In this document: one piece after another, positions 15,680 to 18,955 of the stretch
How positions within the stretch are numbered: the first letter of the stretch is position 1
Layout: each line of letters opens with the position of its first letter
Assembly: GCF_053078305.1 (NCBI RefSeq)
Contig: NZ_CP166879.1
Length of the DNA: 64,000 bases
Reading direction: 5' to 3' (one strand)
Notes under the pieces: model-generated
Told to the model about the DNA's origin: nothing
What the model saw: only the letters and a program-made list of their open reading frames with translations
Databases searched by the model: none
Program-made: the position numbers and the translations under genes

Positions 15680-15790
15680 ACTGTGTCAACGATCCGTTAT
15701 CAGTGCAGGAAAATGCCTGTTAGCGTAAAAGCAAAACACAAATCTATCCATGCAAGCATTCACCGCCGGTTTACTGGCGGTTTTTTTTTT
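15680..15790 (+). ncRNA. mgrR: Putative PhoP-dependent Hfq sRNA MgrR (about 100 nt), ending at hairpin CCGCCGG/CTGGCGG plus T10
   Basis: Strong intrinsic terminator at 15763..15790 with no coding ORF, PhoP-box upstream; 5' end approximate. Confidence 0.5.
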
Positions 15791-15865: not shown

Positions 15866-15961
15866 TTAGTCATCCCATTTGTGGCTGAAATACGCGGCCA
15901 GAAAACCAGAAAATAAAATTATTCCCAGTACGGCCATAAAAACATTCATATTACCCAGCAT
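15866..15961 (-). CDS. mgtS: 31-aa inner-membrane small protein MgtS (YneM): MLGNMNVFMAVLGIILFSGFLAAYFSHKWDD
   Basis: Translated by hand from the minus strand; not in the ORF track because of size. Confidence 0.85.
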   Translation of the reverse strand: MLGNMNVFMAVLGIILFSGFLAAYFSHKWDD

Positions 15962-16068
15962 TATTTGCCTCCGTTTATGGTGTGGTGTGTTTCCTCGCTT
16001 ACCTTAATTTTCATCTCAATGAGAAAGATATTAGCAGAGGTTATCTAAACAAAGGCTGAATCAGGCGA

Positions 16069-17065
16069 TTATTGTGATGGGGAACGGCTGTTTTTGCGAT
16101 ATTGCGAAGGAGATAATAAAAAACGTTGGTGAAAGTGATGACGCAATAACGCTGAATTGCCAAAACCCGTCAGCTCGGCAATTTTCTCGATGTTAAAAAC
16201 CGAATTTTGCAGATAATCCTGTACTCGTATTAAGCGCTCATTGAGCAGCCAGCGGGCGGGCGTCATGCCAGTTAACGCCTCAAAACGTCTTAAAAAAGTG
16301 CGCGGACTCATATTTACCCGTTCGGCGAGGGAAGACACAGTATGTGTTTGTGCCAGATTCTGCTGCAAAAAGTCGAATAAGGCACCTAACGTCTGGCTTT
16401 CACGCGGTGAGGCCATTGGGCGCGTCAGATTTTGTGGTTGATCCCCCTGGCGATGTGGCTGAATGACCAGTCGCCGGGCGACATTATTAGCAATCTCATG
16501 ACCAAAATCTTTGCGCACGATATGTAAACACAGATCGATCCCCGCGGCGCTTCCGGCGGAGGTCATCACTTGTCCTTCATCCTGATATAACACATTGTCA
16601 CTTACGCTGATTGAAGGGTAACGGTGCTGGAGTTGTTCAGTGTAGCGCCAGTGGGTGGTTGCTTTTCGCTGATGAAGAAGGCCCGCAGCAAGCAGCAAGG
16701 ACAAACACGCCAGAGCATATTGATACCAGGCGAGTACCGCGCTGGTGTGCCTCGCGCAATGACTGGCATAGCATCTCCGGCACTTTGGCATCTATTCCGC
16801 GCCAGCCAGGAATAATAATCATATCGGCGTTGGGCAATAACTCCAGTCCACCATCTGCAACCACGTGGATCCCCCCGGTGGCTTGTAGCGCACCAGGTTC
16901 TACCGCAGCAACAGCAAAACGATACCAATTATCGCCCAGTTCCGGTCGTGGCAGGCCGAATATTTCAACGGCAACGCCAAATTCAAAAGTACATAGCCCG
17001 TCATATGCCAGTGCAATGACCAGCGGACGTTGTAACGTTGTCATCATTTTGCTCATTTCTGGCAT
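16069..17065 (-). pseudogene. GlxA-family regulator (DJ-1/PfpI domain + AraC HTH) disrupted by a frameshift
   Basis: N-terminal DJ-1/PfpI ORF (16637..17065) and C-terminal AraC-HTH ORF (16069..16791) overlap in different frames; a perfect 7-bp tandem duplication GCAGCAA at 16685..16698 sits exactly at the frame break. Confidence 0.8.
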
Positions 17066-17138
17066 ATCGAGAGGCGGTCAGTGAAAGGTAGATTAGTTAC
17101 ATTATTGTTAACACAACAAACCAAAAGGACAAAGCAAT

Positions 17139-17534
17139 ATGCGTTATGTCACTGAATTTACCACAGCGAAGCCAGAAGTTGCTGAGGCGCATTTTCTCGC
17201 GCGCTTGAGTGTCGAAACAGATTGCGCCGATGTTCATGACTCTCTGGCTTATATTGGCGATGATTTCGTTTTACTTCATGTGGTTGGACGTGAAGAGGAC
17301 TTCGCGCGTCGGCATATCCCAGGCGCTCTCCATTTACCCCATAAGCAAATGACCGCAGAAAGAATGGCCGAATGGCCCGACGATACGCTATTTGTGGTGT
17401 ATTGCGCGGGGCCACATTGTAACGGTGCAGACCGTGCGGCACTCAAACTGGCTCGACTCGGAAAGCCGGTTAAAATCATGCTCGGCGGGATAACCGGCTG
17501 GGAAGATGAAGGCTATGCCTTTGCCTCAGAATAA
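17139..17534 (+). CDS. Single-domain rhodanese-like sulfurtransferase
   Basis: 131-aa ORF with Cys-containing loop VVYCAGPHCNGADR; divergent from the GlxA-type regulator. Confidence 0.75.
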   Translation: MRYVTEFTTAKPEVAEAHFLARLSVETDCADVHDSLAYIGDDFVLLHVVGREEDFARRHIPGALHLPHKQMTAERMAEWPDDTLFVVYCAGPHCNGADRAALKLARLGKPVKIMLGGITGWEDEGYAFASE

Positions 17535-17574
17535 TGATTAGCGAAGCCGTGCCAGTAGTGGAACGGCACGAACG

Positions 17575-18762
17575 TCAACAGAGTGCTGGTTGCCTCTGGG
17601 GTCTGGCGTTAATACCTTTTAACATCAGCGCCCACGCGGCAATGATGACTAACGCCAGAATGATAAACAGCGAAGACGACGGGAGAGTGGTAAGTACAAC
17701 ACCACTCACTAATGGATTTACCGCTGCGCCCAACCAGCCTAAAGACTGGGCGGAAAAATAGCTGGCTTTCATTCCTGGCGGCGCAATATGGTCAATCAAC
17801 ATATACTCGCCCGGCGCATAAATGATTTCACCGACAGTAAATACCGCAGCTGACATACCCCACAATAGCAGGCTGTTGCCGGAAAAAATAAAACCGACCA
17901 GACCGATGACGAAACAGAGGGTGCCAGCTGTCATCAGCGCGCGGATGTTAGCCGGGTTAAGGCGGCGGCCCACGGAATATTGCAACGTAACCACCATGGC
18001 AGCATTCACCGGAAGAACAACCGCGACCACCTTTTCGGCAAAATCCCCATCAGCAATCACCATCACATATTGTGAGATGCATGAAGCAAATGCGCCACTA
18101 ACAAAAGAAGCCAGAAAGCCAGAGCAGGTAAACCACAACAGTGCTTTATCTTGTAATAAAACTTTCGGCGACCAGACACTGTCTGTTTCCGTGGCGATGA
18201 TTTTCTCGCTGCGCTTTACCCAAATTTGAATGAAAAGCATGGGAAACGCGGAACAGATAGCTGCCAGCCAAAAGGGCAGATTGATGCTCTGCATCACCAA
18301 CAGCGTGCCGAGCGGCGGGCCGACGGTCCAGCCAATATTGAGCATGGTGTAGTTGATCGAGAAGATCTTCGTTTTGCTGGTGGATGAAAGATTGTCGGCA
18401 AACCAGGCTTTCAACACTGTGGCAAAAACGGAATAGGCGCAGTTGATGAGTGCGAAAAAAAGTACCACCAGCGTGACGCTGTCCACCAGGGGAATAGCAA
18501 TAAAACCGCTGGCGAAGGCCGTAATTGCCAGTAACATATAGCGTTTCTTGTCGAACTTATCCGCCAGGATACCAAAACCGAGGCTAAAAACGACGCCAAT
18601 AGTGAGCGCAATTGTCATCGCATAACCAATGAGATCGACACTCAGGCTGTACTGACGACTTAAGTAAATAGTCATAAATGGCAGCGTGGCGCCGCGTCCG
18701 ATAGTTAATAACAATGACGAGGCGAGAAGGGCGCAAGTAGAGCGTCTCAGAGATAAGTTCAT
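17575..18762 (-). CDS. ydeE: MFS efflux transporter
   Basis: 395-aa 12-TM ORF. Confidence 0.85.
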   Translation of the reverse strand: MNLSLRRSTCALLASSLLLTIGRGATLPFMTIYLSRQYSLSVDLIGYAMTIALTIGVVFSLGFGILADKFDKKRYMLLAITAFASGFIAIPLVDSVTLVVLFFALINCAYSVFATVLKAWFADNLSSTSKTKIFSINYTMLNIGWTVGPPLGTLLVMQSINLPFWLAAICSAFPMLFIQIWVKRSEKIIATETDSVWSPKVLLQDKALLWFTCSGFLASFVSGAFASCISQYVMVIADGDFAEKVVAVVLPVNAAMVVTLQYSVGRRLNPANIRALMTAGTLCFVIGLVGFIFSGNSLLLWGMSAAVFTVGEIIYAPGEYMLIDHIAPPGMKASYFSAQSLGWLGAAVNPLVSGVVLTTLPSSSLFIILALVIIAAWALMLKGINARPQRQPALC

Positions 18763-18955
18763 TTGGCTGTCCGACAGTGCATTTCGTTATGTTTTGTTTT
18801 GGAGATGTAAAGAAATAGCATGGCAAAAATCCGAAGTATAGCGACTTATTTGCCATTAATGCTGTGGTAAACGGTGATTAATGAATGAACTGTTAAATAA
18901 AAGTAAATTCAGCTAAGTTGATTGCTGACAAAAAATGAAATTCAGAGGCGGGAAA

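Follow-up and report, generated by a model that had tools for sequence, protein, structure and literature searches.

Regulators in which an N-terminal DJ-1/PfpI-like sensor is followed by a C-terminal double helix-turn-helix (HTH) are known from Pseudomonas (GbdR) and Streptomyces (AdpA), and single-domain rhodaneses with a catalytic-loop cysteine are known from E. coli (GlpE and PspE). A gene pair that joins these two kinds of protein is already annotated in RefSeq: at the intact orthologous loci of E. coli PapRG-06-5 and O157:H7 Z852, its members are named 'transcriptional regulator FtrA' (WP_001310251.1, 323 aa) and 'rhodanese-like domain-containing protein' (WP_001271101.1). A literature search returned nothing on the E. 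coli FtrA protein or on the function of the FtrA-rhodanese pair.

We analysed this pair in a 64,000-nt stretch of contig NZ_CP166879.1 (assembly GCF_053078305.1; hereafter, the window), where the regulator gene is interrupted. The features referred to below are the following.

15866..15961, minus strand: mgtS, left neighbour of the ftrA-rhodanese pair.
16062..17574: segment missing from K-12-type genomes (1513 bp, as compared with 26 bp in K-12, by BLAST against the K-12 locus L003).
16069..17044, minus strand: ftrA pseudogene, counted from the RefSeq start; DJ-1/PfpI sensor followed by an AraC-type HTH_18 domain.
16069..16566, minus strand: C-terminal frame with the HTH; 165-aa ORF (P0009) from Met159, as called by gene callers.
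16637..17044, minus strand: N-terminal frame; 118 native and 17 aberrant residues (CCGPSSSAKSNHPLALH), then a stop; 135 aa (P0001), without the DNA-binding domain.
16685..16698: perfect GCAGCAA x2 repeat, GCAGCAAGCAGCAA, lying on the frame switch; a by-product of the 4-nt duplication in a GCA-rich context.
16687..16694: the lesion, AGCA-AGCA (coding strand TGCT-TGCT); 4-nt tandem duplication within GCT-GCT-GCG, the codons of Ala117-119.
17045..17138: divergent intergenic region between ftrA and the rhodanese gene, 94 bp.
17139..17534, plus strand: rhodanese-like gene, 131 aa, intact, single-domain (WP_001271101.1), divergent from ftrA.
17575..18762, minus strand: ydeE, right neighbour of the pair.

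As an earlier sequence-only reading of this DNA had stated, the regulator is split into two overlapping frames on the minus strand, 16637..17065 (142 aa) and 16069..16791 (240 aa), which jointly make up a DJ-1_PfpI + HTH_18 protein. Intact FtrA scores 555.1 bits on NCBIfam model NF006902 (cutoff 425) and carries, in the domain order of the family, DJ-1_PfpI at residues 39-176 (E 4.5e-18) and HTH_18 at residues 238-316 (E 3.7e-19). The repaired window sequence also passes the cutoff, whereas the unrepaired halves fall below it (211.4 bits over profile positions 7-123 and 331.1 bits over positions 119-324); the gene is therefore a member of the FtrA family, but a pseudogene here. Its 131-aa neighbour matches Pfam Rhodanese (PF00581, E 3.3e-11, residues 52-123) and displays an invariant active-site loop, YCAGPHCNGAD, with Cys89 conserved throughout an alignment of seven orthologues; the gene is identical to its counterparts in PapRG-06-5 and O157. 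The domains assigned to the pair in the sequence-only reading, DJ-1/PfpI + AraC-HTH for the regulator and a single rhodanese domain for its neighbour, are borne out by Pfam and NCBIfam. Upstream of the RefSeq start, an alternative ATG at 17065 gives a 330-aa form of FtrA with seven extra codons (MPEMSKM, 17045..17065). Counterparts of these codons precede the ftrA start in other genera (MPENSKM, MPKNARI, MPYILKI, MTATLKI), so that 17065 may be the true start or else the stretch at 17045..17065 may be a conserved DNA element.

Over 972 nt, the window ftrA differs from intact alleles by a single 4-nt insertion: on the plus strand, intact alleles read CCCGCAGCAGCAAGG and the window reads CCCGC-AGCA-AGCA-GCAAGG. 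When the four nucleotides are taken out, the translation is exactly WP_001310251.1, 323 aa. The sequence-only reading had called the lesion a 7-bp tandem duplication, having located, at exactly the right position, the perfect repeat that coincides with the frame break, and having found, correctly, that dropping one 7-mer opens a continuous frame reading ...VFVLAAGLLHQRKATTHW. Seven and four leave the same remainder on division by 3, so that this removal mends the frame as well. The resulting 322-aa protein has VLAAG in place of VLAAAG, that is, one Ala fewer at a site where the stretch FVLAA[A/T]G is invariant in length across seven aligned FtrA orthologues, from Escherichia to Alphaproteobacteria.

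A genuine 7-bp duplication would account for the two perfect copies and for the frame restored by the loss of one, but it requires a VLAAG ancestor where all seven orthologues have FVLAA[A/T]G. Moreover, an exact-protein look-up among about 15 billion public proteins found no match to the 322-aa protein, as against at least 1000 contigs with the 323-aa form, and the remainder of ftrA is nucleotide-identical to the 323-aa allele. We consider the probability of a 7-bp event to be negligible. The comparison with orthologous loci that had been proposed as a check did find intact alleles, but these differ by 4 nt and not by one 7-mer; in the same way, the proposal of a slipped-strand inactivation stands as regards a small tandem duplication of the slippage type that would inactivate the regulator, but not as regards its unit, which is 4 nt. 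Perfect 7-mer tandem pairs are not enriched in the window (3 observed vs 3.0 +/- 2.0 expected from Markov shuffles): the repeat occurs at chance frequency. Only comparison with intact alleles reveals the lesion.

Other candidates at this site were discarded. Programmed ribosomal frameshifting was ruled out, as the mRNA (CUUGCUGCUUGCUGCGGG) holds no X-XXY-YYZ slippery heptamer and intact alleles are the norm. A hypervariable run of Ala codons was ruled out as well, the 324-, 327- and 330-aa members of the protein cluster differing in called start alone. Finally, the terminator-like matches at 16682..16699 are the repeat folding on itself.

The 4-nt duplication is not peculiar to the window. In public data (NCBI, Logan and ENA), 43 contigs have exactly the same 135-aa product and 46 the 165-aa ORF. 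We fetched two carrier loci, GCA_018683035.1 and SRR31847536 (L004), and both have the same 14-mer. Between the former and the window there are 4 differences in 8.4 kb; the latter shows two from dcp to ydeE (one in dgcZ, one change in the length of a T-run) and 105 differing sites across eamA-marB (74 in eamA, 31 in the marB region). Since the +4 allele is shared across this 105-site recombination tract, it predates at least one recombination event and has been inherited within the lineage. In the window the tract lies at 18935..~20200, where identity to K-12 is 84-92%, vs 98-100% in the left flank.

The sequence-only reading had also considered an assembly error, and two observations would suit extra bases introduced by sequencing or assembly of the window genome: none of the 380 module-bearing complete E. 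coli genomes has the +4 allele (the window's own genome being outside that collection), and a nearby T10 homopolymer (15781..15790) also differs in length between assemblies. Such an artefact would nevertheless have to recur in independent sources and with different assemblers to produce one and the same truncated protein on 43 contigs, and to give the same 14-mer in two fetched loci whose backgrounds are set apart by the recombination tract, while O157 genomes, with the same local context, never have the insertion. On this assembly-level evidence, from two sub-lineages, we regard an artefact as very improbable.

Several features of the surroundings may be mentioned here. The T-run at 15781..15790 belongs to the terminator of MgrR/STnc560 (Rfam RF01407, 15657..15872, plus strand) and also forms the 3' terminus of mgtT, which is encoded on the other strand. 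Its length varies: T10 in the window and in L005, T9 in L004 and PapRG-06-5, and T8 in K-12, O157 and E. ruysiae. The window MgtT ends in ...EKKNRQ* (31 aa) vs ...EKKPPVNRR* (34 aa), and mgtT is flagged as frameshifted by RefSeq in PapRG-06-5; the run may be either a truly hypervariable tract or a homopolymer sequencing error. Among complete genomes, the closest matches to the first 25 kb of the window are 97.3% identical and cover 92% of it; over the next 25 kb, PapRG-06-5 is 98.9% identical. The part least conserved across E. coli, 1..~6000, contains prophage tail genes, with matches to annotated tail tip protein J and tail fiber.

The same comparisons bear on the suggestion that changes in the repeat reversibly turn the regulator ON and OFF by phase variation. 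A tandem duplication can in principle revert by the precise loss of one copy, which would restore the frame. However, contingency loci so far known rely on long repeat tracts, and ftrA has just two copies of the 4-nt unit (or of its 7-nt by-product). Both carrier sub-lineages have the same length, all 380 other genomes are single-copy, and the FtrA cluster members of 324-330 aa are alternative start calls, with no length variant of the Ala run among them. A phase-variable switch, as the sequence-only reading had put it, is thus hardly credible. The ftrA frameshift could be used as a clonal marker of its lineage.

Replication slippage would be the simplest source of the TGCT tandem duplication (coding strand) in the codons of Ala117-119, which shifts the frame midway through the sensor domain. 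When begun at the usual start codon, translation is predicted to stop after the 118 native and 17 aberrant residues, leaving out the HTH domain, and ftrA would be a null pseudogene because its primary product lacks the DNA-binding domain. The +4 allele would then have been passed on vertically within the lineage, which would have lost the regulated expression of a rhodanese gene that is itself still intact. The undecayed state of that gene fits a recent ftrA event and, equally, its continued use without FtrA.

The +4 allele may be less than a complete null, as a 165-aa HTH fragment with a plausible Shine-Dalgarno sequence could be made: the Met159 ATG lies at 16564..16566, with GAAGGA 6 nt upstream. 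The regulator would in that case be split rather than lost, with the sensor-less fragment regulating the rhodanese gene independently of any ligand. The DNA-binding domain alone gives constitutive activity in several AraC-family activators, gene callers routinely call the 165-aa ORF (P0009, on 46 contigs), and the rhodanese ORF is wholly intact. Against this, the stretch that resembles a ribosome-binding site is ordinary coding sequence (QDEGQVM) found in intact alleles too, the fragment is without the N-terminal two thirds of the DJ-1 domain, and other lineages break ftrA elsewhere, by a stop just upstream of the HTH or by deletion of the whole module, which points to simple loss. We consider a functional sensor-less HTH fragment unlikely, although less so than either an artefact or a phase switch. 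The explanation that we judge to be best, with a high degree of confidence, is that the window carries a lineage-inherited 4-nt-duplication null of FtrA, the regulator of an old two-gene unit in which control of the rhodanese gene is presumed.

The pair is retained in 380 of 5426 complete E. coli genomes and lacking in 93%, in agreement with its earlier description as strain-variable. With a 191-nt probe, these carriers divide into 322 with the window-type allele (95-99% identity) and 58 with another haplotype (80-90%). The match between K-12 and the window breaks off after 16061 and resumes at 17575, and the dgcZ-ydeE spacing is 440 bp in K-12 vs 1929 bp in the window; the pair is thus absent from K-12, as the sequence-only reading had supposed, but the gap there is 440 bp and not ~0.6 kb.

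That reading had taken the module to be inserted. The order mgtS-ftrA-rhodanese-ydeE is also found in E. whittamii and E. ruysiae, and mgtS-ftrA-rhodanese in Citrobacter amalonaticus, Phytobacter and Pseudescherichia vulneris. The GC content of the module is 0.504, vs 0.482 for the window, no mobility genes were found near the ftrA-rhodanese pair, and at the K-12 junction a terminal remnant of ftrA, about 8 nt long, survives (TTATTGTG, the last ftrA codons and the stop). The characters of a horizontal island are missing here, since the pair stands at the same site in outgroups and has neither atypical composition nor mobility genes. Because of this outgroup synteny in five other taxa, the ordinary GC and the ftrA remnant, the module is ancestral at the site and the K-12 arrangement, rather than the window's, is the derived, deleted state.

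The K-12 deletion junction is nearer to a haplotype of the E. ruysiae/L006 type than to that of the window, and the last 200 nt of ydeE (17575..17774) are 80.5% identical to K-12 where the adjoining 400 nt are 98-99% identical. This suggests another haplotype as the background on which the K-12-type deletion originated or with which it spread.

Other lesions of ftrA are present in public E. coli. In an O157 sub-lineage, a nonsense mutation at Q198 leaves fragments of 204 and 115 aa, the 115-aa one being found on 270 contigs; there are in addition an in-frame deletion (250 aa) and three other frameshifts, all independent (the proteins that represent these lesions are P0033, P0011, P0013, P0002, P0005 and P0007). 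Because of these independent lesions and of the deletion in 93% of genomes, the distribution of ftrA in E. coli is the pattern of a gene under relaxed selection. The frameshift in the window would be a stage of a decay process whose end point, deletion of both genes, has been reached by most E. coli.

FtrA and rhodanese genes are divergent and 60-95 bp apart in all seven other genera sampled, mostly with different neighbours on either side. Four of these genera came from searches with the rhodanese (Lelliottia, C. amalonaticus, Ensifer adhaerens and Radicibacter daui) and three from searches with FtrA (Enterobacter cloacae, Phytobacter and Pseudescherichia). The rhodanese is unusually well conserved, being 72-74% identical between E. 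coli and alphaproteobacterial orthologues. The divergent pairing in 7/7 other genera points to the rhodanese gene as the target of FtrA. Most likely, FtrA exerts this control in response to a thiol-reactive or sulfur-related ligand, and the control would be abolished here; FtrA would normally bind the 94-bp intergenic region, with a small molecule of this kind as its ligand. In an alignment of eight taxa, the enteric intergenic regions share a block, GTTACATTATTGTTAACACAA, at 17096..17116, which directly precedes the ribosome-binding site of the rhodanese gene and which we regard as a candidate promoter/operator. A consensus scan of the 94-bp region found no consensus sigma-70 promoter, an absence in weak agreement with a promoter that depends on an activator.

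In five enteric genera (Lelliottia, Citrobacter, Enterobacter, Phytobacter and Pseudescherichia; L015-L017, L019-L021), the next gene after the rhodanese encodes a MetE-like protein of 367 aa (Pfam Meth_synt_2), and in four of the five a periplasmic-binding-protein ABC transporter gene comes after it; ydeE stands there in Escherichia. The Escherichia neighbours of the pair are ydeE and eamA, a cysteine/O-acetylserine exporter gene. The MetE-like and eamA/ydeE neighbours hint at sulfur metabolism, and there may have been a larger FtrA-controlled operon, related to sulfur or methionine, that was lost in Escherichia.

A pairing found in every genus of Gamma- and Alphaproteobacteria sampled, 72% rhodanese identity and an isonitrile-hydratase-like sensor lead us to propose, tentatively and as a possibility to which we give less than even weight, that FtrA and the rhodanese form a sensor-effector unit, so far uncharacterised, whose signal is a small molecule that reacts with thiols or is related to sulfur (such as cyanide, an isonitrile, sulfane sulfur or an electrophile). 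In a weaker variant of this proposal, the +4 allele would give a constitutively active HTH fragment and not a null. The +4 lineage, the O157 nonsense sub-lineage and the K-12 deletion provide natural knock-outs for putting the sensor-effector proposal to the test.

Taken by itself, the lesion is ordinary: a frameshift with predicted loss of function, fixed in one lineage, in a regulator-rhodanese pair that is ancestral and already annotated. E. coli is losing this accessory regulator, and the frameshift adds one more lineage-specific case, of little weight alone. In annotation, the allele deserves to be treated as a genuine pseudogene that arose from a 4-nt duplication, and not be 'repaired' as a 7-mer artefact. 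A wider, if modest, interest lies in the pair itself, which is strongly conserved and whose function is undescribed in the literature searched.

How the two genes stand to known systems can be summarised as follows. With simple-sequence contingency loci, ftrA has in common a short tandem repeat within the coding region at the frame break, but it differs in having two copies only and no length polymorphism, either within the lineage or in the 380 other genomes. The rhodanese resembles GlpE and PspE in being single-domain with a catalytic-loop cysteine; at the thresholds used, no NCBIfam or PDB sequence match linked it to either, and it therefore belongs to a different subfamily. Its nearest solved relative is Bacillus halodurans BH2092 (PDB 3o3w, 3nhv; E 1e-17), with which it has the C-x-G-P-x-C-N-G-A loop in common and which is itself uncharacterised. 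FtrA matches GbdR with an E value of 1e-37 and the DNA-binding domain of AdpA (3w6v) with one of 1e-16; however, it scores only 130 bits against a GbdR cutoff of 480, and therefore constitutes a separate family, one that adjoins a rhodanese gene. The best solved-structure sequence match to the FtrA sensor (residues 48-196, E 1e-17) is isonitrile hydratase InhA (PDB 6ni5, 3non), and the nucleophile-elbow cysteine of FtrA, Cys110 (SICSG), is invariant in seven orthologues; InhA is a free-standing enzyme, whereas the FtrA sensor is fused to an HTH. The closest likeness is to RefSeq FtrA (NF006902; WP_001310251.1; Z2164 in O157:H7 EDL933), to which the window copy is identical over 972 nt once the insertion is removed, and whose position between mgtS and the rhodanese gene it shares; it differs in being frameshifted after residue 118, so that neither half reaches the cutoff of the family.
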